A stretch of DNA of 64,000 bases from Chloroflexota bacterium (GTDB lineage Bacteria > Chloroflexota > Anaerolineae > VGOG01): assembly GCA_016875995.1 (NCBI GenBank), contig VGOG01000001.1:7386-71385 (forward strand), given 5' to 3'. The position numbers and the translations under genes are program-made. Shown one piece after another: positions 2,595-61,601 of this stretch; the first letter of the stretch is position 1; every line of letters begins with the position of its first letter. The notes beneath the pieces were generated by a model. The model saw nothing but the letters and a program-made list of their open reading frames with translations. It did no database searches and was not told the DNA's origin.

Positions 2595-2596
2595 AA

Positions 2597-5816: not shown

Positions 5817-5857
5817 ATCCGTCTCCTTTCTTTTTGCTACTCGTGCTAAAACGCTCC

Positions 5858-6472: not shown

Positions 6473-6580
6473 TCGTGTGCGTTCCTCCTTGCTAAGATGT
6501 GATGGGTGAAGTGGTTCAAGGCAACCTTATTCTACTGCAAAAGTCGGTTTTTGTCTAGAGATGCAAGTCAACGCTTAAAC

Positions 6581-6613
6581 GAAAAAGGCGGCACCACTAT
6601 GTGCGGTGCCGCC
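6581..6613 (-). terminator. Rho-independent terminator after tRNA-Arg
   Basis: Minus strand GGCGGCACC-GCACATAGT-GGTGCCGCC followed by TTTTTCGTTT, starting 6 nt after the tRNA 3' end. Confidence 0.7.
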
Positions 6614-6618
6614 GCAGG

Positions 6619-6968
<350 letters not shown>

Positions 6969-7001
6969 GTATTCTCATTTTAATCCAAGCTGGAGAGATT
7001 G

Positions 7002-10424: not shown

Positions 10425-10496
10425 AAAGTCCTCCTGGGTTCTACGAAGTCGAGGTTAATTATACCAGTTTTCCATCGCCTTGACAAATACGCAAGA

Positions 10497-10525
10497 TTGA
10501 CTAATTCCGCAGATTGTGGCATACT
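10497..10525 (+). promoter_or_regulatory. Candidate promoter for the DUF2007 gene
   Basis: TTGACT, 17-nt spacer, CATACT with an upstream TG. Confidence 0.35.
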
Positions 10526-10553
10526 TCTGGTACAGGTCGAGAGGAGAAACACA

Positions 10554-10820
10554 ATGACAGGTCACAAAAAGGCAAGTAAACCTGGGCTAGCCACCGTCTA
10601 CACCGCCTTCGGGCAACTGCAAGCTCAAGTCATCAAAACCAAGCTGGAAAGCGCAGGGATCCCCGTTCTACTAGACTACGAGAGCGCGGGCGTCGTCTTC
10701 GGCATCACCGTAGATGGCCTGGGTGAGGTGCGGGTGATGGTCCCAGCAGCCCTGGCCCAGGAGGCCGAAGAACTCCTGAGCCAGCCACCGGATTGGCCAC
10801 CAGAAGAAGAGATGGACTAG
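10554..10820 (+). CDS. DUF2007-like small protein (putative signal-transducing fold)
   Basis: ATG at 10554 after GAGAGGAGAA. LATVYTAFGQLQAQVIKTKLESAGIPVLL matches the DUF2007 pattern. The upstream part of ORF 9942..10820 is antisense shadow of gene 8838..10424. Confidence 0.6.
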   Translation: MTGHKKASKPGLATVYTAFGQLQAQVIKTKLESAGIPVLLDYESAGVVFGITVDGLGEVRVMVPAALAQEAEELLSQPPDWPPEEEMD

Positions 10821-10829
10821 GAGGACATT

Positions 10830-25888: not shown

Positions 25889-26527
25889 CTAACCTTCTTC
25901 TGGCGAATCAAAAATGCCAAAGACTTGCCGCATCAATGCTCTTTCTAATGCCGTTGCTGCCTCAAGTTGACGCTCTGCAGCTACTTGCATCTTCCTAACT
26001 TCTTTGAGTTGCTGCGCAAACTTTGCCTGCTGGTCCTTTGGTGGAACTGGCAGCCAGATCTCCAAAAGATGATATGATCTGATAGCAGCATAGTTCGTAG
26101 AACCTTGAACATACTGTTGGATTTCCTCAGTCAGAACACCTGAGGCTATAAAGCATTCCAGGAATTCAGGCAAAACCTTGTCGGTATCTATGTCATAGAG
26201 AAAATAATGCCCACTGACAATCGAGCCTTCTAGCTCTCGTGGAACTATTCCAAAGGCTCCCAGTTTAGCGTCGATTTCTGCGACCAGTAACTGGTTGTTT
26301 CTGATCAATTGTTGTTGCTTGGTTCTGATTTGCGACCCTCGAAGTTTCTCTCTCGGAACTATGCCCTTTCCGTGTAACTTCACCGTTACGAGCTGATATT
26401 CAGTGTTATCGTCAATGGTAACGAATTCCTGCCTATAAACAAGTACATCGCCCAATCTCATCCATTGCCAACTATTTGGCAAAGACTGAGGCCGTCCCTT
26501 TATGTCTTTCTTCGCTTCGCTTATCAC
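25889..26527 (-). CDS. hsdS: Type I R-M specificity subunit, half-size (single TRD)
   Basis: 212 aa. One target-recognition domain (LPNSWQWMRLGDV..) plus one C-terminal conserved helix (QQAKFAQQLKEVRKMQVAAERQLEAATALERALMRQVF). Overlaps hsdR by 4 nt and is 2 nt from hsdM. Visibly more AT-rich than its neighbours. Confidence 0.8.
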   Translation of the reverse strand: MISEAKKDIKGRPQSLPNSWQWMRLGDVLVYRQEFVTIDDNTEYQLVTVKLHGKGIVPREKLRGSQIRTKQQQLIRNNQLLVAEIDAKLGAFGIVPRELEGSIVSGHYFLYDIDTDKVLPEFLECFIASGVLTEEIQQYVQGSTNYAAIRSYHLLEIWLPVPPKDQQAKFAQQLKEVRKMQVAAERQLEAATALERALMRQVFGIFDSPEEG

Positions 26528-34441: not shown

Positions 34442-37666
<3,225 letters not shown>

Positions 37667-44207: not shown

Positions 44208-47200
44208 ATGCTGATGTTAGTCCTGCATGGTAACTGGTTGCTACCTACCCAACCCACAGAATCCGGCCGCTTCCTGCTGTGGGCCGAGACCTCCCAGGCG
44301 AAGCTGCGCAAGCCGCGGGGACGCCCCCAGGTGCCCCCTCATCCCTTTGCCGCCCCGCCCGAGGCAGTGCAGCAGGCGATCCTACGCCTCGGTCCCCTTC
44401 CCGATACACCGGCCATGGTCCGCTTCAACTTGTTCCTGCCGGCTGACGGAAACCTGCCCCTCCCCTCCCCGCGCCTGGTGCATGACTGGGATGAGTTGGC
44501 CGACGCGACGCCAACGGGCCTGCGCCGCTTCAAGCTGGAGGGCCTGGCCCTGGACGCGACCGATGCCCTGCGACTGCTGACCGCCCTGCCCGCCCCGGAG
44601 GCCCTGCCACCGCACCTGGCCTGCGGAGATGATCTGATGTTCTGGAGCACGGTGGCCCGTTTCGCCCTGGAGCTGCTGGCCGGTCAGCGCTACATACCGG
44701 CCATCGAGCAGGTGGATGCTCAGACCTTCCACGCCCGCTGGCGCCCGGTGTTCGACCGACCCGAAGACGCCAGCCGATTGGCCCAACTGCTGCGATCCAT
44801 GCCTCCGGTGGCCCGGGCCTGCCTTCCTCCAGAACTGAAGGGCGAGCCCCAGCCCCCGCCGGCGCACTACTTGCTGGAGAGCTTTTTGATCAGCGTGGTG
44901 GACAGCGCTGTGCGTGAATGGCACGGCCACGCCTGGCGCCCCCTACGAGGTGACGACGTAGCCGTGGCCTGGCTCAATGCCCTTTTCGCCGCCGATCCCA
45001 CCATCGAGGGGCCGTACTTCACCCTCAGCACCCTGGCCAAAGCGCACAAGGCCTGGGTACGCCAGTTGCAGGTAGCCGGCGACGCCGCCTTCCGCGTATG
45101 CCTGCGCCTGGAGGTGCCTGAGACAACTGAGAAAGCGTGGCCCCTCGACTTCCTCCTCCAGGCCAGCGACGACCCCAGCCTGTTGGTGCCAGCCACGACC
45201 GTATGGAAGGCGCGGGGCAAGACCCTCACCTACCTGAACCGCCGCTTCGAGGAGCCACAGGAGCGACTGCTGACCGCGCTGGGCTATGCCTCGCGCATCT
45301 TCCCGCCGCTGGAGCGCAGCCTGCACCAGCGTCGCCCCACGGCAGCCCACCTGAGCACCGACGAGGCCTACACCTTTCTCCGTCAGGCCGCCTCCCTGCT
45401 AGAGCAGAGCGGCTTCGGCCTGCTGGTTCCCCCGTGGTGGAACCGGCGGGGCAGCCGCCTGGGCGCTCGCCTGCAGGTGAAGAGCCCATCCAGCTCGACG
45501 GACACCTCCAGCGGCCTCCTGAGCATGGAGAACCTGGTCAACTACCAGTGGGAGATTGTCCTCGGCGATCAGGCGCTGACCCGCGAGGAGTTTGAGGCTC
45601 TGGTACGGCTCAAGACGCCCCTGGTGCAGATCCGAGGCCAGTGGGTAGCCCTCAATCCGGAGCAGATCGAGGCCGCCATCCGCTTCTGGGAGAAGCGACA
45701 GGCCGAAGCCCAGATGAACGTGCTCGACGCGCTCTCGTGGGGACTGAGCGGTGAGGGCGAGGTGGATGGCCTGCCGGTGGAGAAGGTGGAGATCAGCGGC
45801 TGGTTCGGTGAGTTGCTGGAGCGGCTGAAGCAAGGGGAGCAACTCGAGGAGTTGCCTCAGCCAGACAGCCTGGCAGGAGAACTGCGCCCCTATCAGCAGC
45901 GCGGCTTCTCCTGGCTGACCTTCATGCGTCGCTGGGGATTGGGGGCCTGCCTGGCCGACGACATGGGACTGGGCAAAACGGTCGAGACCATCGCCCTTCT
46001 CCTGCACGACCGGGAGCACGACGGCCAGGTGCCGCCGGCCCTGGTCATCTGCCCCACCTCGGTGGCCGGCAACTGGCAGCGGGAGATCGAACGCTTCGCC
46101 CCCGATTTACGATCCATGCTCCATCACGGCACAGAACGAGCCAGCGGCCAGGAGTTCCTGGATGAGGTAACGAAGCACGACGTGGTCATCACCAGCTACG
46201 GCCTGGCGCGGCGCGACGCCGACCTGCTGGCCCAGGTGCGCTGGAGCGCTGTCATTCTGGACGAGGCGCAGAACATCAAAAACCCGGCGGCCAAGCAGAC
46301 CCAGGCCGTGCGCCAGTTGCCGGCCGACTTCCGATTGGCCCTCACCGGCACGCCCATTGAAAACCGCCTCTCCGAGCTGTGGTCTATCATGCACTTCCTG
46401 AACCCAGGCTACCTGGGCTCGCAAAAGCGGTTCCGAGGAGACTACGCCCTGCCCATCGAGCGTTACCGCGACCCACAGGCTACGGAACAGTTGCGCCGAC
46501 TGGTCGGTCCCTTCATCCTGCGGCGGCTCAAGACCGACCCCACCATCATCCAGGACCTGCCAGAGAAGCTGGAGATGAAGGTTTACTGCAACCTGACGCC
46601 GGAGCAGGCCACCCTGTACGAAGCCGTGGTGCAGGACTCCCTGACCCAGATCGAGGAGAGCGAGGGCATCCAGCGCAAGGGGATCGTGCTCAGCACCCTG
46701 CTCAAGCTGAAGCAGGTCTGCAACCACCCGGCCCAATTCCTGGGCGACGGTTCGGAGTTGCCCGGGCGCAGTGGCAAGCTGGCGCGGCTCAGCGAGATGC
46801 TGGAGGAAGTGCTGGCCGTGGGCGACCGCGCCCTGATCTTCACCCAGTTCGCCACCATGGGAGAGATGTTGAAGCGCTACCTCCAGGAGGGCTTCGGTCG
46901 GGAGGTGCTCTTCCTCCACGGCGGGACGCCCCGCCAGCAGCGGGAGCGCATGATCGAGCGCTTCCAGGGCTATGGACATGGCCCGCCCTTCTTCGTCCTA
47001 TCGCTGAAAGCGGGCGGGCTGGGCCTCAACCTCACGGGGGCCAACCACGTCTTCCATTTCGACCGCTGGTGGAACCCGGCGGTGGAGAATCAGGCCACCG
47101 ACCGCGCCTTCCGCATCGGCCAGACGCGGGACGTACAGGTGCACAAGTTCCTGTGCATTGGCACGCTGGAGGAGAACATTGACGCCCTCATCGAGAGCAA

Positions 47201-47312
47201 AAAGAGCCTGGCTGAAAGCATCGTCACCGCCGACGAGAGCTGGCTGACGGAACTTTCCACGGACGAGTTACGGGAGATGCTGAGGTTGAGGCCGGAGGCG
47301 GTGGGGGAGTAG
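44208..47312 (+). CDS. SNF2-family helicase with a long N-terminal SNF2-associated region
   Basis: 1034 aa. LRPYQQRGFSWL, LADDMGLGKT (motif I), ILDEAQNIKN (DEAQ box), LTGTPIENR, and C-terminal GGLGLNLTGANHVFHFDRWWNPAVENQATDRAFRIGQ. Confidence 0.9.
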   Translation: MLMLVLHGNWLLPTQPTESGRFLLWAETSQAKLRKPRGRPQVPPHPFAAPPEAVQQAILRLGPLPDTPAMVRFNLFLPADGNLPLPSPRLVHDWDELADATPTGLRRFKLEGLALDATDALRLLTALPAPEALPPHLACGDDLMFWSTVARFALELLAGQRYIPAIEQVDAQTFHARWRPVFDRPEDASRLAQLLRSMPPVARACLPPELKGEPQPPPAHYLLESFLISVVDSAVREWHGHAWRPLRGDDVAVAWLNALFAADPTIEGPYFTLSTLAKAHKAWVRQLQVAGDAAFRVCLRLEVPETTEKAWPLDFLLQASDDPSLLVPATTVWKARGKTLTYLNRRFEEPQERLLTALGYASRIFPPLERSLHQRRPTAAHLSTDEAYTFLRQAASLLEQSGFGLLVPPWWNRRGSRLGARLQVKSPSSSTDTSSGLLSMENLVNYQWEIVLGDQALTREEFEALVRLKTPLVQIRGQWVALNPEQIEAAIRFWEKRQAEAQMNVLDALSWGLSGEGEVDGLPVEKVEISGWFGELLERLKQGEQLEELPQPDSLAGELRPYQQRGFSWLTFMRRWGLGACLADDMGLGKTVETIALLLHDREHDGQVPPALVICPTSVAGNWQREIERFAPDLRSMLHHGTERASGQEFLDEVTKHDVVITSYGLARRDADLLAQVRWSAVILDEAQNIKNPAAKQTQAVRQLPADFRLALTGTPIENRLSELWSIMHFLNPGYLGSQKRFRGDYALPIERYRDPQATEQLRRLVGPFILRRLKTDPTIIQDLPEKLEMKVYCNLTPEQATLYEAVVQDSLTQIEESEGIQRKGIVLSTLLKLKQVCNHPAQFLGDGSELPGRSGKLARLSEMLEEVLAVGDRALIFTQFATMGEMLKRYLQEGFGREVLFLHGGTPRQQRERMIERFQGYGHGPPFFVLSLKAGGLGLNLTGANHVFHFDRWWNPAVENQATDRAFRIGQTRDVQVHKFLCIGTLEENIDALIESKKSLAESIVTADESWLTELSTDELREMLRLRPEAVGE

Positions 47313-48066: not shown

Positions 48067-48960
48067 ATGTCTTGGTGGTACCCACGATACACACCAACCA
48101 AACCCATTCCAGTCAAGGGCGGCATCAAGGCCCGCAGCCAGCGCGGAGCCATCGGCCAGAGCTGGTGGGCACAGCGGTGGATTGCGGCTCTGCAACGCAT
48201 CATGGACCCGAAGCGGCTGAACCGCGGGCGCAATTACGCCCGGCAGGGCCAGGTGATGGACATCCAGGAGCGGGACGGAGAGATCACCGCCAAGGTCCAG
48301 GGAACCCGTCCCACCCCCTACAGGGTGAGCATCCGCGTGAAGCCACTGAAGGACACCGACTGGGAGCGGGTGCTGGACGTGCTGGCCGATCAGGCTATCT
48401 TCACCGCCCAACTGCTGGCTGGCGAGATGCCGACAGAAATCGAGGAAGCCTTCACCGCTGCTAAGGTCAGCCTCTTCCCCGCCTCGGGCCGAGAGTTGGA
48501 GACCGATTGCTCGTGTCCCGACTGGGCCAACCCCTGCAAGCACATCGCCGCGGTGTACTTCCTGCTGGGCGAGGCCTTCGACGATGACCCCTTCATGCTG
48601 TTCCGACTGCGAGGCCGCACCCAGGAACAGGTGCTGGAGGGGCTGCGCGCCCGGCGCGGCGCGGCCGAAGAGGAAGAAGCTGGCCCCGACCTCATCGCCC
48701 TGCCTGCGGAGGAGACGGCTCCCACGCCCTTGCCGGAGGACCCAGCCATCTTCTGGCGCCTGAGCCAGCCCCTGGACGACTTCCAGGTACAGCCAAAAGC
48801 GCCCCAGGTGCCCTGGAGCCTGCTCCAGCGGCTGGGCCAGCCCGCCTTTGCCCCGCTGAACCTTCGCTCCAGTCTGGGTACTGTGTATCAAGAGGTCACC
48901 CGGCGCGCTGAGGCCCTGGCCCTCAGTGAACAAGCCGAAGTGGAGGAGGCATTGGCGTGA
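48067..48960 (+). CDS. SWIM zinc-finger protein
   Basis: CSCPDWANPCKHIAAV is the SWIM CxC..CxH signature. Confidence 0.85.
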   Translation: MSWWYPRYTPTKPIPVKGGIKARSQRGAIGQSWWAQRWIAALQRIMDPKRLNRGRNYARQGQVMDIQERDGEITAKVQGTRPTPYRVSIRVKPLKDTDWERVLDVLADQAIFTAQLLAGEMPTEIEEAFTAAKVSLFPASGRELETDCSCPDWANPCKHIAAVYFLLGEAFDDDPFMLFRLRGRTQEQVLEGLRARRGAAEEEEAGPDLIALPAEETAPTPLPEDPAIFWRLSQPLDDFQVQPKAPQVPWSLLQRLGQPAFAPLNLRSSLGTVYQEVTRRAEALALSEQAEVEEALA

Positions 48961-49574
48961 AAAACCTTGTCCTGAGCCGAAGCCCTGAACCACCGCTGCG
49001 AGCGCAGCGTGGCAGGCTCCGTGAAGGGGCAAGCGAAGGAATCGTCTTCTTCGACCTGGAGACGCGGCGGAGCTTCCAGGAGGTGGGAGGTCGGCACAAC
49101 ATTCGGCACCTGGGCCTCTCCGTGGCCGTGACCTATTCGACCGCCGATGGCAGGTATCACCACTATACCGAGGACAACGTGGACGAGCTCATCGAGGAGC
49201 TGAAGGCCGCGGACCTGGTCGTCGGCTTCAACGTGATGAGCTTCGACTACGAAGTGCTGAGGGCCTACACCGACTACCCCCTCCGCCAGCTCCCCACAGT
49301 GGACATCATGAACGACGTCTACCGCGTCCTGGGCTTCCGCCTGGGCCTGGACGCTCTGGCCAGCGCCACGTTAGGGACCACCAAGTCGGCCGACGGGATG
49401 CAGGCCATCCGCTGGTGGCGTGAGGGCAAGATGCAGGAGCTGTTCGAGTACTGCCAGCAGGACGTAGAGATCACCCGGCAGCTCTACGAATTCGGCAGGC
49501 AGAACAAGTACGTTCAGTATCGAGACCGGCAGTGGAGGATCAGGAGAGTGCCGGTTAACTGGGGCAACGGATGA
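48957..49574 (+). CDS. RNase H-fold DEDD 3'-5' exonuclease-like protein
   Basis: GTGA overlap with the SWIM gene. IVFFDLET (Exo I), VGFNVMSFDYEVL (Exo II), YCQQDVEITRQLY (Exo III). Confidence 0.65.
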   Translation: MKNLVLSRSPEPPLRAQRGRLREGASEGIVFFDLETRRSFQEVGGRHNIRHLGLSVAVTYSTADGRYHHYTEDNVDELIEELKAADLVVGFNVMSFDYEVLRAYTDYPLRQLPTVDIMNDVYRVLGFRLGLDALASATLGTTKSADGMQAIRWWREGKMQELFEYCQQDVEITRQLYEFGRQNKYVQYRDRQWRIRRVPVNWGNG

Positions 49575-51668: not shown

Positions 51669-51917
51669 ATGACTGAAACAACTCTATGGATTCGAGACCG
51701 CTTTCCCATCCTTTACGAAGGTAGCGAGGCAAAAGCCGTTCTGGTGGACATCACTTCGTTCGATCAGATGGAGCTCATCATAGACAACCTGTTGAACCGC
51801 GAGGAAGAGCCAGAGGATGCCATCCTGGCTGCTTCCGCTGTTCTGCGACGGTTGGTAGCCCAAGCTCGACAGGAATCGTCTTCGTCCGATTGGGAGCGGG
51901 AGCTCGATGAGCTATAA
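51669..51917 (+). CDS. Small antitoxin-like protein
   Basis: 82 aa, acidic, overlaps the downstream RelE-like ORF by 11 nt. Confidence 0.5.
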   Translation: MTETTLWIRDRFPILYEGSEAKAVLVDITSFDQMELIIDNLLNREEEPEDAILAASAVLRRLVAQARQESSSSDWERELDEL

Positions 51918-52256
51918 CGTGGTTCTCACCCCATCTTTCAAGCACAGCGTCAGAAAACTGCAAAAGCGATTCCGACACGTCAAGGATGATGTGGGCGTGG
52001 CTGTTCGTGTGCTTTTGCAAACTCCGAGACTGGGTGCAGTTCTCCCTAGCGGTTCCGGCGTGCGTAAGCTGCGGTGCGTAACACCGATCTGGGCAAAGGC
52101 AAAAGGGGTGGCTATCGCCTGCTGTACTACGTTGAGGACCAACCCGTGCCAACCATCTATCTCCTGTTGCTATATGCCAAGTCAGACCGAGAAGACATCA
52201 CCCGACAGGAATTAAAGCAATTGCTGGACGAGTTGGCGGACGAGATGGGAGAATGA
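51907..52256 (+). pseudogene. RelE/ParE (HigB/Gp49-type) toxin gene disrupted by a frameshift
   Basis: ORF 51907.. reads ..GSGVRKLRC then goes out of family. ORF 52074..52256, in the frame that starts one base earlier, reads VRNTDLGKGKRGGYRLLYYVEDQPVPTIYLLLLYAKSDREDIT. Joined they give one typical toxin. The break is near 52070-52076. Confidence 0.65.
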
Positions 52257-52319: not shown

Positions 52320-52700
52320 ATGATTGACGACTACGCCAAAGCAAACGAACTGATGCGCAAGATGGAAGCCCAACTTCCCATCCCAGCGCGATCAACGGGC
52401 GCGTTGGTCCGCGCCCTGCGGGAGCAAGGAGTCAAGCTCCCCCGCGATCAGGAACTGCAAATCAAGCGCGTGTTCTACATGGGTGACGAGGGTGGCATTA
52501 TGTGCGACGTGACCCTATCGGAAGAAGCGAAAGAGGCCATCGTCGTTTCCATCACCCACCTGCGGGTCTCCGCCCGTCATCCACTGGCGCAAGAGATCCG
52601 CGAATACCAGCAGGAACGGACGCGAAGACTCGCGCTATCGGGAGGACCGAGCCAGCCGTCACAGTTTACGGCTCGTTCGCGCAAAAGGCGGAGACGTTAA
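52320..52700 (+). CDS. Hypothetical protein (126 aa) with an Arg-rich tail
   Basis: ATG 52320 after GGAGAA. No family recognised. Immediately upstream of the large methyltransferase. Confidence 0.45.
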   Translation: MIDDYAKANELMRKMEAQLPIPARSTGALVRALREQGVKLPRDQELQIKRVFYMGDEGGIMCDVTLSEEAKEAIVVSITHLRVSARHPLAQEIREYQQERTRRLALSGGPSQPSQFTARSRKRRRR

Positions 52701-52783
52701 GGAAACGAGCTACGACTGCTATCCCAGCGGCCCGAGAAGCGGTTGGCTGCTGTGCGGTCGTGACGACGAGGAGATTGTATGCG

Positions 52784-55700
52784 ATGAACGAGAATGCCTT
52801 GCCTTTTGGCTACAACTTCACTTCGCACGAGACAGTCCTGGATTTCCTGAGCGATCAGGGCTATCGGGTCGAGTCCACCCCTTGGGATATCTCCGACCTG
52901 TCCGACCGTGCCAGGGAACTGATTGGCTCTATGTCTCTCGTCTCGCACTATGACGACGATGTAGCACCTTTCCAGGTCTTCCTGACTGAACTTGACGTAC
53001 CTCGCCAGGTCAGGCGCATCCGCCGTACCGACCTGCGGATCATCCTGGAACCCTTCTATCGCCGCTATCCCCAAGGCGACTACCTGTTCATCTTCGCCCT
53101 GCCCAATTATGCCAGCGTTGCCCTGGTCAGCCCCAAGCGCATCCGTGGCGAGCCCCGCCACCCCTCCGGAGTAGAGGCTTTAGCCGGTCCGGCTGAAGCC
53201 TCCACTCCAGATCTCTACGCGGCCACAGCTAAACTGCAACTGCGCATCCTCACCCTCGACCCCCGGCACCTCTACCACACCGACCTATTGGTGCTGGAGC
53301 AGATTCGGCTGGGGCCGGAGGATCAGACCGCTGAGGCCATCTGGCGGAAACACCTGGCGGCTTTCGACGTTGAACGGGTCACGCGCCAGTTCTACGAGGG
53401 ATATAAGACGGTATTGGCTATGCTCAAGTCGCAGTTGGCCGCCCAGCGTCGGGTCGGTGCGATGCCTGCTCAGGTGCACGCTTTTGCCCAGCAACTCCTC
53501 AACCGCTTGATGTTCCTCTACTTCGTGCAGAAGAAGGGCTGGCTGCGTTGGAACGGTGAGCCAGACCCCCACTACCTGCGCAGCCTCTGGGAGCGTTACC
53601 GCGACGGAAAGCAAACTGGCGACGGTGGCTTTCACGGATGGTTGCAAGCCCTCTTCCTGGACGCTTTCAACAACCGTCGGGCGACCGTGGCCGCCAATTC
53701 CGCTCTGCCCGACGACGTGCGAGCCTCCTTCCTGGGTATGCCATTCCTCAACGGCGGCCTCTTTGATCAGAACGACCTGGATGACCTGGGGTTCTCTGTA
53801 CCTGACAAATTCTTCGTCCAGCTCTTCGATCGTTTCGAGCGAGAGGAGCCCGGCTTCCTGGAGCGATACAACTTCACCGTGGACGAGAGCACGCCGCTGG
53901 ACGTGGAGGTGGCCGTTGACCCGGAGATGCTGGGCAAGGTCTACGAATCGCTGGTGGCAGAGGAGGAGCGGCACGCCGCGGGCATCTTCTACACCCCCCG
54001 CGAGGAGATTGATTACATGTGCCGTCTCTCGCTCATCGAGTACCTGCACGAGCAGACCGGCTATCCCAAAGACGACCTGATCCCGCTGGTGATGGAGCCT
54101 CGCCGGCTGCTGGAGACTCCCGAAGCTTGTCCCGAGCGGGAGCGAGGGGATGGCATCGTCCCCTTCGGCGGTCTTTCCCAGACCAGGCAGCACGAAGCCT
54201 TGCGGGTTGTGGAGAAGGCGCTACGAGAGATACGGGTGGTAGATCCAGCAGTCGGATCTGGGTCATTCCTGGTAGGCATGATGAAGGCGCTGGCGGAAAT
54301 CCAGCGGGTCCTCGCTCAGAAGCTGGAGCGCAAGCGGTTCAATGAGTTCGACCGCAAGCGGCAGATCATCATGGAGAACCTGTACGGGGTGGATGTGAAG
54401 GACTGGGCGGTGCGGGCCTGTGAGCTGCGGCTGTGGCTATCGCTGACCATCGAAGCTGAGGAGCAACAGATTGGGCTCTACACCAACCCGGTGCTGCCCA
54501 AGCTGTCCTTCCGCGTGCGCCAGGGGGACAGCCTGGTGGAAGAAGTGGCTGGCGTGCCGCTGGCCATGCGCGGTGCCCAGGCCGTGCCAACCTCCCTCCA
54601 GAAGCGGTTGGCCCGGTTAGCCCAGGAGAAGGCTGACTTCTTCGGCGGGCGAAGCCTGCGCAAGCCTGACTACATCGAGCGGGAAGAGCAGAAGCTCCTG
54701 GTGCAGTTCCTCAACGAGCGCATTGACGAAGACCAACGGCAGATGGACGTCCTGCGGCGCGAGCCTGTTGGCACTCAACCAGAACTGGGCCTGGAGGGAG
54801 TCGCCCCCAAGGGCGGGAGCAGGGCAGAAGAGGAAGCCGAGGCCCGACGGCAGGCGCGGATCAAGGCGCTAGACGACCGCCGCCAGGAATTGATCAAAGC
54901 CCGCACGCAACTGACCACCGGCCAGACGCCGCCCTTCTTCGTCTGGGAGGTGGGCTTCGGCGAGGTATTCGCCGAGAAGGGCGGCTTCGACATCTGCATC
55001 GGCAATCCGCCCTATGTGCGACAGGAGGAGATTGGCCCACCCACGGAGAACCCTGACGACTACGACGTGGACGAGTGGCGGAGCCTCAAGCAGGATTACA
55101 AAGACCGTCTGGCGCGGAGTGTACAGGCGTTGTGGGGCAGCGCGGCCAGGGTGGACCGCAAGAGTGACCTCTACGTCTACTTCTACTATGCTGGCCTCTC
55201 CCTGTTGCGGGAAGGCGGGGTGTTCTGCTTCATCAACTCCAACTCCTGGCTGGACGTGGGCTACGGGGCCAGGCTTCAGGACTTCCTGCTGCGGCAGATG
55301 CGGGTGCTGCAAGTCGTGGACAACCAGGCCGAGCGCTCCTTTGCTCAGGCCGACATCAACACCGTCATCGTCCTGCTCCAGCAGCCCAAAGCCGACGGAT
55401 CTCAGTGGGAACACGTGGCGCGATTCACCGCCTACAGGAAACCATTTGAGGAAGTCCTTACTGTTCCCAACCTGCTGGCCATTGAGCGAGCCGCCGATGT
55501 AGCCCGCACCGACGACCTGCGGGTGTATCCCATCGCCCAGCGGGACTTGTTGCTGGACGGAGCCGAACTTCCCGAAGAGGCCGAGCAAGCGGCCATGGAC
55601 TTCGCCGCCCTTGAGACCCTGAAATACCAGGGCGGCAAGTGGGGTGGCAAGTTCCTCCGCGCCCCGGACATCTTCTTCACCATCCTGGAGAAGGGCAAGG

Positions 55701-56635
55701 GGAAACTGGTGCGATTAGGCGAGATCGCCGAGGTCCGCCGTGGTTTCACCACGGGTGTCAATGAGTTCTTCTACCTGGAGCCTACGGGCCAACCTGCCCC
55801 CGAGGGGCTTGTGCATGTGCGCAACGGTGCGGGGTGGGAGGGCTATTTGGAGACCGAGTTCTTGAAGCCTGTCATCAAGAGCCCTCGAGAAGTGCGTCGC
55901 ATCGTTGTTCGCCATGAAGACCTGCGCTACAAGGTCTTCATCTGTCGTAAGTCCAGGACCTACCTCAAGCGTGAGCGCCTTAACCATGCACTGGCCTACA
56001 TCGAATGGGGGGAAAAGCAAGGGTATGATGAAAGACCCACCTGTTGGGGTAGAGCATACTGGTGGGATCTTGGCGAGCACACGTCGCCACCGATTGTCAT
56101 GAATAAAGGGGTAAATGATCGACACTTCGTGACTCTCAACAGTGCCCGCGCCCTGTGCGACCAGCAAATCTACGAAGTGCGGGTGGATGAGGAAGATGTG
56201 ATTGCATCCTTGCTAGGGGTTTTGAACTGGACTGGAATGGGCCTTTTCTACGAACTGATAGGGCGGCGCACCTTCGGAGAAGGCGTACTGTGGATTGCTA
56301 TCTATGAAGCAGCGGCACTTTTGACGCTTGACACGTTTGGCTTGACCGAAAGACACCATAAGCGTCTCAAGAATTCCTTAGAACTTCTATCACAGCGGGA
56401 ATTGAAGAGCATCTTCGAGGAACTCGGCCTTCCCAAGCCCAATCGGGATTACAGCAACATTGACCCCAACGACGTCTCGCTGGACAAGGTGCTGCCCGAC
56501 CGGCGGGCGCTGGATGAAGTGGTGTTCGAGGCGCTGGGGCTGACGGAGGAGGAACAACTGGAGGTGTACCGGGCGGTGGTGGAGCTGGTGAAGATGCGGT
56601 TGAGCAAGGCGCAGTCGGTGCGGGGGCGGGGGTAG
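52784..56635 (+). CDS. Large gamma-class N6-adenine DNA methyltransferase (Eco57I/MmeI/PglX-like MTase + TaqI_C-like specificity region), no recognisable nuclease domain
   Basis: 1283 aa from ATG 52784. LLNRLMFLYFVQKKGWL helix, motif I VVDPAVGSGSFLVGM, motif IV CIGNPPYVRQEE, and C-terminal GRAYWWDLGEH-type specificity region. The upstream 94 codons of ORF 52502 are Arg-rich overlap and were rejected. Confidence 0.85.
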   Translation: MNENALPFGYNFTSHETVLDFLSDQGYRVESTPWDISDLSDRARELIGSMSLVSHYDDDVAPFQVFLTELDVPRQVRRIRRTDLRIILEPFYRRYPQGDYLFIFALPNYASVALVSPKRIRGEPRHPSGVEALAGPAEASTPDLYAATAKLQLRILTLDPRHLYHTDLLVLEQIRLGPEDQTAEAIWRKHLAAFDVERVTRQFYEGYKTVLAMLKSQLAAQRRVGAMPAQVHAFAQQLLNRLMFLYFVQKKGWLRWNGEPDPHYLRSLWERYRDGKQTGDGGFHGWLQALFLDAFNNRRATVAANSALPDDVRASFLGMPFLNGGLFDQNDLDDLGFSVPDKFFVQLFDRFEREEPGFLERYNFTVDESTPLDVEVAVDPEMLGKVYESLVAEEERHAAGIFYTPREEIDYMCRLSLIEYLHEQTGYPKDDLIPLVMEPRRLLETPEACPERERGDGIVPFGGLSQTRQHEALRVVEKALREIRVVDPAVGSGSFLVGMMKALAEIQRVLAQKLERKRFNEFDRKRQIIMENLYGVDVKDWAVRACELRLWLSLTIEAEEQQIGLYTNPVLPKLSFRVRQGDSLVEEVAGVPLAMRGAQAVPTSLQKRLARLAQEKADFFGGRSLRKPDYIEREEQKLLVQFLNERIDEDQRQMDVLRREPVGTQPELGLEGVAPKGGSRAEEEAEARRQARIKALDDRRQELIKARTQLTTGQTPPFFVWEVGFGEVFAEKGGFDICIGNPPYVRQEEIGPPTENPDDYDVDEWRSLKQDYKDRLARSVQALWGSAARVDRKSDLYVYFYYAGLSLLREGGVFCFINSNSWLDVGYGARLQDFLLRQMRVLQVVDNQAERSFAQADINTVIVLLQQPKADGSQWEHVARFTAYRKPFEEVLTVPNLLAIERAADVARTDDLRVYPIAQRDLLLDGAELPEEAEQAAMDFAALETLKYQGGKWGGKFLRAPDIFFTILEKGKGKLVRLGEIAEVRRGFTTGVNEFFYLEPTGQPAPEGLVHVRNGAGWEGYLETEFLKPVIKSPREVRRIVVRHEDLRYKVFICRKSRTYLKRERLNHALAYIEWGEKQGYDERPTCWGRAYWWDLGEHTSPPIVMNKGVNDRHFVTLNSARALCDQQIYEVRVDEEDVIASLLGVLNWTGMGLFYELIGRRTFGEGVLWIAIYEAAALLTLDTFGLTERHHKRLKNSLELLSQRELKSIFEELGLPKPNRDYSNIDPNDVSLDKVLPDRRALDEVVFEALGLTEEEQLEVYRAVVELVKMRLSKAQSVRGRG
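53168..53208. repeat. REP-like palindrome inside the methyltransferase CDS
   Basis: GGAGTAGAGGCTTTAGCCGG-T-CCGGCTGAAGCCTCCACTCC. Same family as the REPs flanking the RAYT gene. Read in-frame as SGVEALAGPAEASTP. Confidence 0.8.
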
Positions 56636-56657
56636 AGCTGGGTAGATTCACTGAACG

Positions 56658-56840
56658 GGGAGTTGAGGCTTTAGCCGGGAACCGCCTAAAGGCTCCACTC
56701 CCTCAGGAAGAAAAAGCTTTGAAACCGCCTGAAAGCTCTACTCCACGAAAGGGGGGCGAGGATTCAGCTAGAACCGCCTGAAGGCTCCACCAGTGTTAGG
56801 AAAGGCTCTACTCAGCATTAGGACAGGAGGCTTCAGCCGG
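56658..56840. repeat. REP cluster (family GGAGTNGAGSCTTYAGSCGG)
   Basis: GGAGTTGAGGCTTTAGCCGG-GAA-CCGCCTAAAGGCTCCACTCC, then CCGCCTGAAAGCTCTACTCC, CCGCCTGAAGGCTCCAC, AGGCTCTACTC, and GGAGGCTTCAGCCGG. Confidence 0.8.
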
Positions 56841-56858
56841 TAGCATTGGAGGTGACTT

Positions 56859-57428
56859 ATGGGGGATCATCACCCACCTCACATCTTCTTGGATGACACC
56901 TGGTATTTCATCAGCAGCTCTACTTTGAACCACGCACGCTTCCTGGCCTCGCCCCGCGCCAAGGCCTTGCTGCGCGATCAACTCAAAGAGCTGATCGTCG
57001 AATTCGGCATTGTTCTACGAGCCTGGGTCATCCTGGACGATCACTACCATCTCTTGCTCAAGACCCGCGTGGGCAAGGACCTGTCCCGCTTCTTCGGTCG
57101 CCTGCACGGAGCCACATCTCGCCAGCTTAACCTGTGGGACGACACAGTGGGCCGCCAGGTGTGGCACAACTACTGGGACACCTGCATCCGTACCGAAGCC
57201 AGCCTCTGGGCGCACTTCAACTACACCCACAACAACCCCGTCAAACACGGCTACGTAGCCTACCCGAGAGATTGGGAATTCTCCAGCTACGGCTACTACT
57301 TGCGGGAGAAAGGCGAGGAGTGGCTAGCCGATTGTTGGGAGCGATATCCGGTGATAGACTACGTTGAGGGAGATGACCTCGGTGGGCCAAAGGAACCGCC
57401 TGAAGGCTCTACTCCCCTTAAACCTTAA
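56859..57428 (+). CDS. REP-associated tyrosine transposase (RAYT, IS200/Y1-like)
   Basis: 189 aa. AWVILDDHYHLLLKT (HUH), NYWD, and YTHNNPVKHGYV catalytic Tyr region. Confidence 0.8.
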   Translation: MGDHHPPHIFLDDTWYFISSSTLNHARFLASPRAKALLRDQLKELIVEFGIVLRAWVILDDHYHLLLKTRVGKDLSRFFGRLHGATSRQLNLWDDTVGRQVWHNYWDTCIRTEASLWAHFNYTHNNPVKHGYVAYPRDWEFSSYGYYLREKGEEWLADCWERYPVIDYVEGDDLGGPKEPPEGSTPLKP

Positions 57429-57496
57429 AGTAAAGGCTTCAGCCAAAAGCCGCCTAAAGGCTCCACATTGGTGACGGGAGTCGAGGCTTTAGCCGG
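57395..57496. repeat. REP cluster downstream of RAYT
   Basis: CCGCCTGAAGGCTCTACTCC (overlaps the RAYT 3' end), AGGCTTCAGCC-AAAAG-CCGCCTAAAGGCTCCAC, and GAGTCGAGGCTTTAGCCGG. Confidence 0.8.
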
Positions 57497-57512
57497 AGAA
57501 AGGGGCGATTCT

Positions 57513-57710
57513 ATGTCCGACAAAACCGACGTTCTGGCAGCCATCGAGATGCTGCTGGAGGAAATCGAAACAGTCATCGAAACATTCAACAGCGAAGGAA
57601 GTGCCGCCTTCGCTTCAGGCAAGCACAAAGAGGCAAAGCCTATGAAGCAACCTTATGACCCTATAACACACGTTCAAAATTTGCCATTTCATTGTGAGAC
57701 TGATGCATAG
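57513..57710 (+). CDS. Small hypothetical ORF (65 aa), possibly a gene remnant
   Basis: ATG 57513. Helical N-terminus MSDKTDVLAAIEMLLEEIETVIETF. No family recognised. Confidence 0.25.
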   Translation: MSDKTDVLAAIEMLLEEIETVIETFNSEGSAAFASGKHKEAKPMKQPYDPITHVQNLPFHCETDA

Positions 57711-57781
57711 AGCTTCCAAAGAGTCCCATTTCAGCAAAAGAGTGGGCAGTACAATCCATCGGGGCCAAGTAGGAGTATGCC

Positions 57782-60700
57782 ATGAGTACCAGCCAACCTT
57801 TTACACTTCCAGACTTGATAGATAATAGCACGCCAGACCGCACCCTGAGCCATATCCTCAATCAGCTCCTGGCAACGGGACCCGCGGTCCACATCGCCAC
57901 CGGCTTCTTCAACCTGGGCGGCTATGCCTTACTGCGCGACGGCCTGCAGCGGGCGTCACGGGTGCGCATCCTGCTGGGCAAAGAGCCGGCCACCACAGAG
58001 GCAAGCCCCGATGCGCCGCCCCTGGTGGAGGAACTGACCGAGGCAGTCGAAGCTGACCTGCACGAGGCGATGGCCACCGGCCATCGCACCGACCACAACC
58101 GCGTGCGCGACTTCTTAGCATTTCTGCAACAGCCCCAGGTGGAAGTCCGCCTCTATCCCCGCCACTTCTTCCACGCCAAGGCCTACATCCTCGACGGCGT
58201 GCCCCCCTTCGGCACCATCGCCATCGTCGGCTCGTCCAACTTCACCACGGCCGGGCTCACCAGCAACACCGAGCTCAACATGGCCCAGAAGCAAGCCGCC
58301 GTCGCCTGCGAGTTCGCCACCTGGTTTGACCGCTTCTGGGCCGAGGCCGAGGATTACAAGTCGGCGCTGATTGAACTCTACACCCGGGCCACGGCCTTGC
58401 ATCCACCCTATCTCATCTATATCAAGGCCCTCTACGAAGCCTTGTCCGACCGGCTGGGCGGCGACCTGGCTCCCACCGACGAGCGCCCTAGCCCCATCCT
58501 GCTGGCCGACTTCCAGCACGACGGCTATCTCACGGCCAAAGACATCCTGGAGACTTACGGCGGCGTCCTCATCGCCGACCCGGTAGGCTATGGCAAGACC
58601 TATCTCGCCCTGCGATTACTGGACGACTACGCCTACCAGTTGCGGCAGAAAGCCCTGGTCGTCTGCCCGGCCCAACTGCGGGACATCTGGTGGAAACCGA
58701 AGCTCGACGTTTATCGCATCTATGCCCACGTGGAATCGCAGGAGCGGGTCAGCCAGCGCGACTTCCCTGTAGAAAGCTACGCCGACGCCGACCTGGTCAT
58801 CGTGGACGAATCGCACAACTTCCGCAACCCCTCGGCCAACCGCTACGATAACCTGGCCCGGCTGCTGCGCACAGACCAGCGCAAGAAGCTGGTCCTGATG
58901 ACCGCCACGCCCATCAACACCAGCGTCTTCGACCTCTACCAGCAGGTGCGGCTGATCACCGGCGACCGGGACGACTACCTGACTGGCGTGGGCATCTCCA
59001 GCCTGCGCGGCTACTTCGTCCAGGCCGAACAGAACCGGGAGACGCTCCACGACCTGCTGGAGGCCATCGCCGTGCGGCGCAGTCGAGAGTTCATCCGTCG
59101 CAACTACCCCGAAGCGGAGATAGATGGCCAGCGCCTCCACTTCCCTGAGCGCCAGCTTCACACCGTGCATTACAACCTGGAAGCGACCTACGAAGAGCTC
59201 TACGCCGAGGTCGCTCAGCTTATTGAGGGACTACGGCTAGCCCCCTATCACCTGGACTTCTATCGCAAGGGCCTGCCGGGAGAGCGATTGGGGCTGTGGG
59301 AGAGATTGAACGAGATTCTCCAGGAGACAGGTCTACCCCAAGAGCAGGCCCAGGCCCTGGCTATGACCCTGGGCCGTCAGGCGTCGCTGGTGCAGATCCT
59401 CAAGACACTCTACCTGAAGCGACTGGAATCCTCAGTAGCCGCACTGCGGATCAGCCTGGAGCGGCAAAGACGTTTCCAACATCGGTTCCTGGAACAACTA
59501 CGGGCCGGCCGTTTACTGGATTCGAGCTCTTTTCGCCACCTAGAGAGCATCGTCAGGCGCATGGCTGGCGAGGACACAGACGTAGAGTGGGAGGAGGCCG
59601 ATGAGGAGCTCCAAACCCTCATCGCCGAAGTCCTGGCCGAGCTGCCCGAGATAGACCTACGCGGTTACGACTTGGCCGCCATCGAAATGGCGGTGACCAA
59701 CGATATCGAAGCCTTGGGGGAGGTGTGCCGCAAGCTGGAACCGCTGACAGCGGCCAAGGACGACAAGCTGGCAGCCCTCAAGGCACTATTGACCGGGGAA
59801 CTGCACGGGCGGAAGGTGGTCGTCTTCACCTACTTCAAGGACACGGCTCGTTACCTGTACCGGGAACTGCGCAAAGACGCGGATTTCCTGCGATCATTGG
59901 GCCACACGCGGCTGAGCATCACCGACGGTGGGATCAAGCCCCAGGAACGCAAGGATCGCATCATCCGCTTCGCCCCCAAAGCTCACGAGCACGAGGACAT
60001 ACGGGGCACTGAACGGGAAATTGACTTGCTTATCAGCACCGATGTCCTCTCCGAGGGCCAGAACCTGCAGGACGCCGACACGGTGGTCAATTATGATCTC
60101 CACTGGAACCCGGTGCGCATGGTACAGCGGGCGGGTCGTATAGACCGCATCGGCTCCGAGTACTACGTGGTATACAGCTACAACTTTATTCCCGAAGATG
60201 CTCTAGAATCCCTGATCAGGCTGATGCAGCGGCTGCGCGAACGATTGGAGGCCATCAACCGGGCTGGCCTGCTGGATGCGCCCGTGATGGGGGAACTGCC
60301 CACCCCACAGGACTTCAACGCCTTGCGCCGCATCGCCCAGGCAGATCAGACCATCTGGAGTGAGTTGGAGTCCTTTTCCGAGCTCGATTTCGGCGAGTTC
60401 TTGCAACAGGAACTGTTGGACTTTTTGAAGCGAGTGGGCGAGGAAAAGCTCAAGGCGCTGCCGCCTGGCGTGGGCACAGGAAAGAAAGCACCTGATGGAC
60501 GGCAGGGACTATTCGTGCATCTCAAAGGGGGCAGCCAGCACTTCTGGCTGTTCTACGACCTGACCACGCGTCGCTTTTTGGAGCGCAAGTTAGAGGTCAT
60601 CCGGCTGGTGCGCTGCTCAGAGAGCGAGCCGGCTGTCGAGCCAGACTTCGATGTCTACCCAATCATTGAGCAGGTCAGGCGGCACGTAGTGGGCCGACTG

Positions 60701-61006
60701 AGACAGGCACAGGTCAAGGTTCCCAGGCTCAAAGCACCGCAAAATCACATCTTGAACTGGCTAAAGACCCAACGAAGGAACGAAGTTATTGAAGAATTAC
60801 TGGCCTACTTCGCGGAACCGCTCCCTGACCCATACCTGCGACGGCTGCGTAGGGTCTGGCAGGAGAACCGACATAGTGGACCGGCACTTTTCGACATGCT
60901 GAGGGCTTTCGCTTGTGACAATCCCGTGAGCCGACCAGAACGACCGGAGGTGCCGGAACTGAGCGAGGATGACCTCTCATTGGTTTGCTACATGGCCCTG
61001 GTGTGA
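57782..61006 (+). CDS. PLD-family (HKD) nuclease domain fused to an SF2 (SNF2/Res-like) helicase
   Basis: 1074 aa. A single HKD motif FFHAKAYILDG..IVGSSNFTTAGL. Helicase motif I ADPVGYGKTYLA, motif II VIVDESHNFRN, motif III LMTATPINT, motif VI QRAGRIDRIG. Confidence 0.85.
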   Translation: MSTSQPFTLPDLIDNSTPDRTLSHILNQLLATGPAVHIATGFFNLGGYALLRDGLQRASRVRILLGKEPATTEASPDAPPLVEELTEAVEADLHEAMATGHRTDHNRVRDFLAFLQQPQVEVRLYPRHFFHAKAYILDGVPPFGTIAIVGSSNFTTAGLTSNTELNMAQKQAAVACEFATWFDRFWAEAEDYKSALIELYTRATALHPPYLIYIKALYEALSDRLGGDLAPTDERPSPILLADFQHDGYLTAKDILETYGGVLIADPVGYGKTYLALRLLDDYAYQLRQKALVVCPAQLRDIWWKPKLDVYRIYAHVESQERVSQRDFPVESYADADLVIVDESHNFRNPSANRYDNLARLLRTDQRKKLVLMTATPINTSVFDLYQQVRLITGDRDDYLTGVGISSLRGYFVQAEQNRETLHDLLEAIAVRRSREFIRRNYPEAEIDGQRLHFPERQLHTVHYNLEATYEELYAEVAQLIEGLRLAPYHLDFYRKGLPGERLGLWERLNEILQETGLPQEQAQALAMTLGRQASLVQILKTLYLKRLESSVAALRISLERQRRFQHRFLEQLRAGRLLDSSSFRHLESIVRRMAGEDTDVEWEEADEELQTLIAEVLAELPEIDLRGYDLAAIEMAVTNDIEALGEVCRKLEPLTAAKDDKLAALKALLTGELHGRKVVVFTYFKDTARYLYRELRKDADFLRSLGHTRLSITDGGIKPQERKDRIIRFAPKAHEHEDIRGTEREIDLLISTDVLSEGQNLQDADTVVNYDLHWNPVRMVQRAGRIDRIGSEYYVVYSYNFIPEDALESLIRLMQRLRERLEAINRAGLLDAPVMGELPTPQDFNALRRIAQADQTIWSELESFSELDFGEFLQQELLDFLKRVGEEKLKALPPGVGTGKKAPDGRQGLFVHLKGGSQHFWLFYDLTTRRFLERKLEVIRLVRCSESEPAVEPDFDVYPIIEQVRRHVVGRLRQAQVKVPRLKAPQNHILNWLKTQRRNEVIEELLAYFAEPLPDPYLRRLRRVWQENRHSGPALFDMLRAFACDNPVSRPERPEVPELSEDDLSLVCYMALV

Positions 61007-61088
61007 GCTCCCCCAGGCCATGACTCCCAACCCATCGGCAAAATCGTGAGTTACAAACTCTTACAATTGATTACGATTTAACCAGGCG

Positions 61089-61601
61089 TTGCTGCACTTC
61101 TTGGATAGCCAAGACTACTTGCTGGTGACAGTGGTCATTGATAAGAAGAGCCATATCGAACGCTATGGAGCAGCAGCTTATCATCCTTATCACTACTGTC
61201 TCGCAGTCTTGTTAGAGCGCTACTGTGGCTTCCTGAACCATTTTCACGCTCAGGGCGATGTGATGGCTGAGAGCCGGGGGAGGAGAGAGGACCAGCAACT
61301 CAGAGCAGCTTATCACCGAGTCTATGAGAACGGCACCTACTTTCACGAAGCGGAGTTCTTCCAGCGGGTGCTGACCAGCAAGGAGATTAAGCTCAAACCC
61401 AAGTCAGCCAATAGCGCTGGGCTGCAACTGGCAGACCTGCTAGCGTACCCATGCAAACAGGAGATTCTCGCTGCTGAGAGGAAGATCGAGGATCCAGGGG
61501 ATGTTTTTGGAAAAGAAGTAGGTCGCCGTATTGAAGCGAAATACAATCGGCATTACCTTGATGGTCGCGTTTGGGGATACGGTAAAGTGCTCTTGGAATA
61601 G
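61089..61601 (+). pseudogene. DUF3800-family gene, apparently 5'-truncated
   Basis: LVTVVIDKKSH..YHYCLAVLLERY..GLQLADLLAYP match the middle and C-terminal DUF3800 motifs. The N-terminal DESG-type motif is absent, and the ORF opens with TTG 83 nt after the helicase stop. Confidence 0.5.

Follow-up and report, generated by a model that had tools for sequence, protein, structure and literature searches.

A candidate two-gene, ATP-dependent restriction-modification-like module in a Chloroflexota bacterium pairs a nuclease-less methyltransferase with a PLD-SNF2 protein

That a DNA methyltransferase (MTase) without a nuclease of its own might work together with a separate helicase in restriction-modification (R-M) is a concept known since 2009, when Morgan et al. 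distinguished a second class of MmeI homologues that lack PD-ExK, differ in their first ~100 residues and are flanked by helicases, and proposed for them a Type I-like mode of action with single-strand modification (PMC2731913). In Bacillus subtilis, the MTase DnmA (YeeA) methylates a non-palindromic site and affects promoters (PMC7261158). In the MANTIS system, an MTase directs MtsD, a dimeric effector that joins a PLD nuclease to a superfamily 2 (SF2) motor and whose dimer has been resolved at 2.2 Å (10.64898/2026.09.23.753747), and HKD-Swi2/Snf2 effectors accompanied by an MTase have been described for Type-2 BREX-related (BR) systems and MANTIS (PMC12839542). Here we analyse two genes in a stretch of 64,000 nucleotides (nt), hereafter the window, from the metagenome-assembled genome of a Chloroflexota bacterium (GenBank assembly GCA_016875995.1, contig VGOG01000001.1, positions 7,386 to 71,385 of the forward strand). 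These genes, which we call MT (52784..56635, + strand) and HEL (57782..61006, +), encode a large MTase and a PLD-SNF2 protein. An initial annotation of the window had proposed that they form a split R-M-like module, and all open reading frames (ORFs) that it named were confirmed in place. On the grounds of domain content, intact catalytic motifs, gene pairing, clade-specific partners and allele-level swaps of the recognition region, we consider the two genes to be a candidate two-component, ATP-dependent R-M-like defence module, a reading to which we assign a probability of roughly 0.6.

The locus resembles each of these described systems in part. With B. subtilis DnmA-YeeB-YeeC it shares a large MmeI/Eco57I-like gamma-class MTase with a recognition region, an N-terminal domain without PD-ExK and an adjacent SF2 helicase gene, HEL and YeeB being likened here by gene arrangement. 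However, the B. subtilis nuclease is a separate GIY-YIG protein, YeeC, encoded by the third of three genes, whereas in the window an HKD/PLD domain is fused N-terminally to SNF2 and the genes number two. With MANTIS, Gao_RL and the Type-2 BR systems (MtsABCD), the locus shares an N6-adenine MTase and an SF2/Swi2-Snf2 ATPase that carries an HKD/PLD nuclease domain at its N-terminus. In MANTIS, the MTase gives specificity and hemimethylation, and the effector dimerises into one PLD site. Unlike MANTIS, the window has neither the DUF499 AAA+ loader MtsA nor the small protein MtsB (DUF3780 in PMC12839542, DUF3870 in the MANTIS preprint), and its MTase is a 1283-amino-acid (aa) MmeI/Eco57I-like protein with its own recognition region. 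DUF499, DUF3780, PglZ, BrxC, DrmA and DrmB (DUF1998) were found neither in the gene calls within 10 kb on either side nor among the large ORFs of the window, and none of them was a recurrent neighbour across the 80 related loci described below. The module is therefore not MANTIS/Gao_RL, BREX or DISARM, and the earlier judgement that it is none of BREX, DISARM or the classical Type I/III systems agrees with this absence of their diagnostic components. A literature search of incomplete coverage yielded no named or tested two-gene system composed of a nuclease-less Type IIG-like MTase and an HKD-SNF2 protein; apart from the 2009 proposal, it brought up nothing but related systems of several genes. 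Since the logic was already proposed by Morgan et al. and the related four-gene MANTIS/Gao_RL, with its PLD-helicase effector, has been characterised, the module is a variant of published ideas and not a system of a new kind.

MT, the proposed specificity and modification subunit, is an Eco57I/MmeI-like N6-adenine DNA methyltransferase of the gamma class that has a target-recognition region of its own. Its class, already named in the initial annotation, is borne out by the Pfam matches Eco57I (1.4e-27), MmeI_Mtase (1.3e-12) and N6_Mtase (5e-6), and by the gamma-class order of the motifs FYTP (aa 402-405), DPAVGSGSF (487-495) and NPPY (741-744), the residues of which are invariant in an alignment of 34 family members. 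A PDB sequence search gave nothing beyond a distant adenine MTase fragment. The best PADLOC model is REase_MTase_IIG (5e-58), which aligns only from aa ~190. Upstream of this point, in aa 1-190, no D...(D/E)xK motif is conserved among the 34 homologues, in agreement with the earlier remark that MT has no recognisable nuclease motif. MT therefore groups with the nuclease-less, helicase-flanked MmeI homologues and, as far as its sequence tells, belongs to the second class of Morgan et al. (PMC2731913). The region following the MTase domain, at aa ~930-1200 (55571..56383, +), had been called TaqI_C-like. Its role in target recognition is backed by an alignment of PADLOC MTase_II PDLC03267 to aa 933-1181 and by a precomputed Pfam match to M_Eco57I_C (PF22837); the TaqI_C label itself was right only in part, there being no Pfam match to it at E≤0.01.

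Two further parts of MT deserve mention. The N-terminal domain (aa 1-190; 52784..53353, +) is an alpha/beta domain, as seen from an AlphaFold2 (AF2) model, Foldseek and the alignment, in which T166, F102 and F104 are the only conserved residues. The model of aa 1-480 has a mean predicted local distance difference test score (pLDDT) of 79.5, with values mostly above 90 at aa 8-130 and 150-175. Foldseek returned no PDB match to it at E≤0.001, and among the weak matches (probability 0.2-0.3) PD-(D/E)xK folds recurred: McrC, Hjc resolvases, the SPARDA nuclease, CinB, a cap-snatching endonuclease and DpnI. These matches are suggestive, and the domain is probably a degenerate, catalytically dead restriction-endonuclease-like fold, possibly one that serves as a docking domain for HEL. 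An insertion of ~130 aa with charged, heptad-like helices (aa ~590-720; 54551..54943, +) lies between motifs I and IV; the Pfam Eco57I match stretches over aa 531-853 although the model has 171 positions. The L/I/K/E periodicity of this insertion is kept in the family consensus, and it may be an arm for protein-protein contacts.

HEL is a 1074-aa protein in which a PLD nuclease domain with a single HKD motif is fused to a SNF2/RapA-like ATPase, and it is the proposed translocating nuclease effector. The earlier description of an HKD nuclease joined to a complete SF2 translocase was confirmed by Pfam matches to PLDc_2 (aa 35-186, 3e-14), SNF2-rel_dom (3e-10) and Helicase_C (4e-19) and by the presence of all four motor motifs. 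It was likewise correct that the nuclease is of the PLD type, not PD-(D/E)xK or Mrr, and that the activities are divided over two polypeptides, MT being a separate ORF. The PLD domain (aa ~11-190; 57812..58351, +) consists of one PLDc_2 stretch with the motif H131-x-K133-x4-D138...G150-S-S-N153, and the SNF2-type motor (aa ~240-830; 58499..60271, +) has intact Walker A (GKT, 271-273), DESH (342-345), TATP (374-377) and motif VI (QRAGRIDR, 782-789). In 20 homologues of 46-77% identity, H131, K133, G150, S151, S152 and N153 are invariant in the nuclease domain, as are G269, G271, K272, T273, D342, E343, H345, T376, P377, Q782, R783, G785, R786, D788 and R789 in the motor. Both ORFs of the module are intact, with catalytic motifs that are invariant within the respective families. 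Because each HEL chain has one HKD motif, a dimer would be needed to form the active site, by analogy with BfiI, SauUSI and MtsD. The C-terminal region (aa ~840-1074; 60299..61003, +) is conserved in the alignment, for instance at P986, Q987, Y1009 and W1026, and confidently modelled, helices coming after a beta-sheet that spans aa 897-933.

With the AF2 model of HEL (pLDDT 81.5), Foldseek placed RapA on top (E 1e-14, about 1040-1180 aligned columns), followed by eukaryotic SNF2 remodellers; the PDB sequence matches were ISWI, CHD and RapA. In PADLOC, this type of protein has no entry other than C3a139 'HKD+Snf2', which stands for a neighbour of Type III CRISPR systems (Shah et al. 2018). This model was matched by HEL at 7e-67, ahead of DrmD (7e-36) and HmaA (4e-27, over the C-terminal motor half only). 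The NCBIfam scores lie far under their curated cut-offs: 142 against 1100 bits for phospholipD_antiphage, 135 against 610 for DrmD and 15.8 against 133 for DrmC. HEL accordingly sorts with SNF2 proteins of defence systems (C3a139, DrmD, HmaA and the PLD-helicase anti-phage models) and not with repair helicases. The HEL protein is identical to NCBI FJ014_00320 [Chloroflexi bacterium] and is present too on the JGI contigs Ga0194111/2/3. Another ORF of 1074 aa in the window, at 34442..37666, was considered as a second PLD-SNF2 copy and rejected, being a class I aminoacyl-tRNA synthetase.

The pairing of the two genes was followed across genomes. At E≤1e-10, the searches yielded 2680 HEL-like and 7351 MT-like clusters among 8000 candidates scored per search, from bacteria, archaea and plasmids. 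The independent lists of top matches for HEL and MT have many contigs in common, judged by the identical sizes of their longest contigs (for example 118917, 118453, 141564, 29342 and 65045). A scan with the HEL alignment, limited to one genome per species, gave 80 loci from Chloroflexota, Planctomycetota, Cyanobacteria, Acidobacteriota, Bacteroidota, Proteobacteria, archaea and others, in which ORFs were called and clustered and tblastn was run. At 43 of these 80 loci by tblastn, and at 47 by ORF clustering, a large MTase like that of the window was encoded no more than 6 kb from HEL and in the same orientation. Loci without an MTase nearly all end at a contig edge, L023 being the sole one that lacks it despite full flanks. 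The homologues thus adjoin on the same strand across many phyla, at nearly every locus with enough flank, and also on plasmids, among them those of cultured Deinococcus, Microcystis and Nostoc that have defence genes (DUF262; nucleotidyltransferase plus SLATT) between MT and HEL. Where HEL comes first (23 loci), the median gap is 4 nt, as is typical of operons; where MT comes first (20 loci including the window), it is 836 nt, and 11 of the 20 gaps exceed 500 nt and usually hold extra genes, all gaps being measured from the starts of longest ORFs and hence perhaps underestimated. Comparative genomics supports the reading as a two-gene module, with the function of the pair remaining predicted, and the split R-M-like arrangement stood up on co-localisation, on MTase grouping and on helicase grouping alike.

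Other HEL homologues are partnered differently. At 4 of the 80 loci (L035, L041, L044 and L048), HEL is followed by an MTase of ~1140 aa (1138 aa) with a target-recognition domain (TRD) and a Pfam Type_ISP_C match (2.5e-64) that carries neither motor nor nuclease. This combination is, in effect, a split-off Type ISP enzyme in which the HKD-SNF2 protein replaces motor and nuclease. At 6 further loci (L047, L049, L061, L063, L078 and L083), the genes downstream of HEL encode DUF4391 (Pfam 2.4e-68), then a Type III Mod (N6_N4_Mtase), then Res (ResIII plus RE_endonuc), an arrangement that is constant in its HEL clade and, as a four-gene unit, seems undescribed. When HEL sequences are grouped by neighbour joining, the partner types fall into separate clades, one or more for each type. 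A protein with Schlafen AlbA_2 and HATPase_c_4 domains also recurs beside the module, at 11 of the 80 loci (for instance L024, 6275-7498, and L034, L037, L042, L051 and L068); proteins of this type are reported to accompany BREX and BREX-related systems often (PMC12839542).

The specificity of the module appears to be exchangeable between strains. Two close relatives, L087 and L088, carry a HEL that is 92% identical to that of the window and occupies the same place in the chromosome, upstream of radical-SAM, ThiI and SecDF genes. Their MT alleles (1592-5359 and 1633-5286; 1255 and 1217 aa) are 86-98% identical to MT over aa 1-1050, but only 10-36% around aa 1050-1200, the divergence in L088 beginning earlier, at about aa 850. 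A conserved HEL together with a swapped MT recognition region is, at the level of these alleles, the classic pattern of specificity switching and diversification in R-M systems.

Against the remaining known systems, the module can be set apart by its layout. Type ISP enzymes (LlaGI, LlaBIII) have the same four activities, namely nuclease, SF2 motor, gamma-class N6-adenine MTase and recognition domain, with modification of one strand expected in both cases. However, the window has two polypeptides, a PLD instead of an Mrr nuclease, a SNF2/RapA-like motor and an Eco57I-type recognition region without a Type_ISP_C match, it being a sister HEL clade that pairs with the Type_ISP_C-bearing MTase-TRD. 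The single-chain Type IIG enzymes MmeI and Eco57I share the order of a gamma-class MTase and a C-terminal recognition region, but the PD-(D/E)xK nuclease domain is absent from MT. Type III R-M systems combine a beta-class Mod with a Res that has a C-terminal PD-(D/E)xK domain, whereas MT is gamma-class and HEL is SNF2-type with an N-terminal PLD; true Mod and Res proteins stand only beside a HEL clade different from that of the window.

Class 1 DISARM has, in DrmD-DrmMI, a SNF2 helicase beside a large Eco57I-type N6-adenine MTase whose methylated site is non-palindromic, and also a PLD nuclease, DrmC; DrmD and DrmMI contribute to defence (10.1101/2021.12.28.474362). By contrast, DrmA and DrmB are missing here and the PLD is fused to SNF2. 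BREX differs by its PglZ phosphatase and BrxC/PglY ATPase, both absent here, and the PglX NCBIfam models score 26-52 bits with MT at cut-offs of 400-900. Of the Hma/Type-1 BR systems (SNF2 with a C-terminal PD-(D/E)xK, a COG1743-type MTase and DUF499), HEL matches only the motor half of HmaA, and DUF499 is absent. SauUSI and CglI/NgoAVII likewise couple a PLD nuclease to an ATP-driven SF2 motor. Yet SauUSI, which works without an MTase, targets modified DNA and possesses an SRA-like reader, and CglI bears the PLD on its recognition subunit and uses a DEAD-Z1 protein as motor; CglI/NgoAVII did not appear among the sequence matches of HEL or its top 50 structure matches.

Between MT and HEL, the window contains a REP-associated tyrosine transposase (RAYT; 56859..57428, +), identified by NCBIfam NF047646 (REP_Tyr_transpos; 1.3e-29, 103 bits against a cut-off of 80) and Pfam Y1_Tnp (8e-7). 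It is flanked by clusters of REP-like repeats, upstream at 56658..56840 (+; repeat families D1-D4) and, from the repeat search, downstream at 57392..57496 (+). The REP pattern AACCGCCTRAAGGCTCYAC has 5 matches in the window where 0 are expected, all of them flanking the RAYT gene and none elsewhere. A 65-aa ORF between RAYT and HEL (57513..57710, +) matches no family and was found on same-species contigs only. A scan of 51.5-61.8 kb for promoter and terminator consensus sequences gave counts at or under shuffled expectation. The RAYT had been noted as an insertion that separates the pair. This is nothing unusual, as relatives hold other cargo in the same slot: an M78-like gene, DUF4411 and a PIN toxin pair in L087 and L088, a DUF262 (GmrSD-like) gene in Deinococcus radiophilus plasmid pRadio5, a nucleotidyltransferase plus SLATT pair in Microcystis aeruginosa NIES-2481 plasmid p1 (L092) and six genes, one of them Schlafen/AlbA_2, in L024. 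The slot spans 5370-7985 in L087/L088, 4009-6919 in L091 and 5328-6966 in L092, and a comparable hotspot for the insertion of defence genes is known inside hmaABC operons (PMC11232893). The RAYT is therefore no evidence of a broken module, and we regard it as cargo in the MT-HEL slot and not as a component. In L089, which has a HEL 86% identical to that of the window and likewise a RAYT between the genes, the MTase is split into two ORFs of 392 and 749 aa (3793-7193 and 7379-7921), and the module may be decaying in some strains.

From this make-up we infer a possible mode of action. MT would read a short asymmetric DNA site through its C-terminal recognition region and methylate one adenine in one strand, thereby marking the host DNA as self; an asymmetric site and one-strand methylation are to be expected because there is one MTase with one recognition region. 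Methylation of one strand at asymmetric sites is the habit of MmeI, BREX PglX, DrmMI (ACACAG), Type ISP enzymes and MANTIS. At an unmodified site on incoming DNA, bound MT, which would have lost its own nuclease and kept the degenerate N-terminal domain, would contact HEL and recruit or license it. HEL would work as a dimer in which each chain contributes half a PLD active site, move along double-stranded DNA by means of its SNF2 motor and then cut. Cleavage would probably depend on site orientation and be most efficient at inverted unmodified sites, as in Type ISP, Type III and MANTIS, and such a preference would spare newly replicated host DNA.

Several observations weigh against the module acting in this way. 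DnmA/YeeB/YeeC, by concept the closest tested analogue, gave no restriction in a transformation assay (PMC7261158). The nuclease activity of MtsD has not yet been shown in vitro, and the MANTIS MTase cannot load on DNA without the AAA+ loader MtsA, which is absent here (10.64898/2026.09.23.753747). The phylogenies of MT and HEL are not fully congruent, the window HEL being nearest to L007-L013 and the window MT to L014, L021, L024, L030 and L034. HEL is not always the sole nuclease, since the Type III systems that partner one HEL clade are complete and bring a nuclease themselves. The possible underestimation of the gaps and an effect that the RAYT insertion might have on HEL expression in this genome belong here as well.

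The dependence of the MANTIS MTase on MtsA also bears on the idea that the two genes are an incomplete part of some larger system of the BREX, DISARM or MANTIS kind, which would not cleave DNA or would need unlinked partners. Pairs of a SNF2 protein and a PglX-like MTase are indeed the cores of BREX type 3, Class 1 DISARM, ARMADA and Hma/BR systems (PMC12839542, PMC12458937), and HEL matches the DrmD and BrxH models as MT matches those of DrmMI and PglX. However, all scores to these families are far under the curated cut-offs, MT has an MmeI-like recognition region of its own and the diagnostic partners are lacking both near the module and as recurrent neighbours, which makes this view unlikely. 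It is somewhat less likely still that HEL is an autonomous nuclease-helicase, for example a SauUSI-like Type IV enzyme directed at modified DNA or a general effector, that lies near MTases only through the clustering of defence genes. SauUSI, which acts alone, combines PLD and SF2 parts in the same way (PMC7913695), HEL is found too beside complete Type III systems, and 8 loci have no detectable MTase, all of them with a flank of less than 2.5 kb on one side. Against this stand the HEL-to-MT gaps of 0-10 nt on the same strand and the clade-specific choice of partner. Moreover, no modified-base reader (SRA, EVE or DUF3427) was found in HEL by the Pfam search or in its AF2 model, and kinship with SauUSI was rejected, as SauUSI appears neither in the PDB sequence matches nor in the top 50 structure matches.

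We give little weight to the view that MT is mainly an epigenetic regulator and that HEL is inactive or has another role in DNA metabolism, as was suggested for DnmA/YeeB/YeeC. That precedent, with its effects on promoters and no restriction phenotype (PMC7261158), speaks for it, but strains that are otherwise nearly identical differ greatly in the recognition region, strict conservation of the HKD and ATPase motifs extends over several phyla, and relatives of the module reside on plasmids and enclose defence and toxin-antitoxin genes as cargo. Less weight yet goes to a module of the proposed kind that is silent or decaying in this genome, with REP-RAYT cutting HEL off from the MT promoter. 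The RAYT and REP hairpins do lie between the genes, the RAYT-bearing L089 has a split MT, and the neighbouring RelE and DUF3800 genes of the window are decayed; yet neither ORF of the pair is shortened or has lost a motif, the RAYT points in the same direction as both, and more than 500 nt or extra genes occupy the slot at 11 of the 20 loci with MT in front. The two-component R-M-like module is our preferred reading.

Several other genes surround the module. A small ORF at 52320..52700 (+; 126 aa, or 140 aa from GTG 52278) had been listed in its neighbourhood. The ORF exists and matches no family; tblastn found it on same-species contigs and in L087 only, where it lies apart from the MTase. 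Since neither L088 nor any of the 80 loci contains it, it was rejected as a third component and is not a conserved part of the module. The decayed RelE module noted earlier corresponds to a frameshifted RelE/ParE-like toxin remnant (51907..52256, +; frames 51907..~52070 and 52074..52256). Its signal is weak, with Pfam RelE at 6e-5 and 23.7 bits (gathering score 27) on 52074..52256 and a ParE-like match of 0.21 on the frame from 51907, and an 82-aa ORF just upstream (51669..51917) may be its antitoxin. Downstream of HEL, the DUF3800 gene (61089..61601, +) is truncated, as had been stated, and it is the N-terminal part that is missing: the Pfam match covers profile positions 62-146 of 149, and the homologue in L031 has 244 aa. 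A classical Type I R-M system lies ~25 kb upstream of the module at 24291..25886 (-) and 26524..28932 (-), with HsdM (N6_Mtase 1.6e-59 and HsdM_N) and HsdR (ResIII 3.5e-29 and EcoEI_R_C), and the window therefore holds at least two methylation-based systems. A second SNF2 gene near the module (44208..47312, +) encodes a SNF2 helicase with DUF3670 (SNF2-rel_dom 8.7e-71) and is followed by genes for a SWIM zinc-finger protein (48067..48960, +) and an RNase_H_2/3'-5' exonuclease-like protein (48957..49574, +). On the Microcystis plasmid p1 (L092), a MotA/TolQ/ExbB-family gene and two hypothetical genes come directly after HEL (10429-13029), a cluster that we take to resemble the start of a Zorya-like system. 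These genes suggest a dense defence island on p1.

Taken more broadly, the HKD-SNF2 family could be a portable, plug-in restriction effector that is stably partnered with at least three unrelated methyltransferase modules, namely nuclease-less IIG-like MTases, Type ISP-like MTase-TRD proteins and DUF4391 with Type III Mod/Res. The IIG-like pairing would then be a widespread, unnamed two-gene class of ATP-dependent R-M without an AAA+ loader of the MANTIS kind, and with the MT-HEL gap as an insertion slot for defence genes. We put this forward tentatively, as an idea that falls somewhat short of even odds. Naming the family would improve the annotation of defence genes, because the only PADLOC label is the CRISPR-associated C3a139. 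The swappable recognition region of MT suggests a source of new programmable methylase specificities. If functional, the module would be a minimal form of the methylation-based defences with motor-driven PLD nucleases, such as MANTIS, DISARM and BREX-related systems, made up of two genes, neither of which encodes an AAA+ loader, and with a methylase that recognises DNA unaided. It would then offer a simple model both for the hand-over of an unmodified site from a one-strand methylase to a separate translocating nuclease and for how self-cleavage after replication is avoided.

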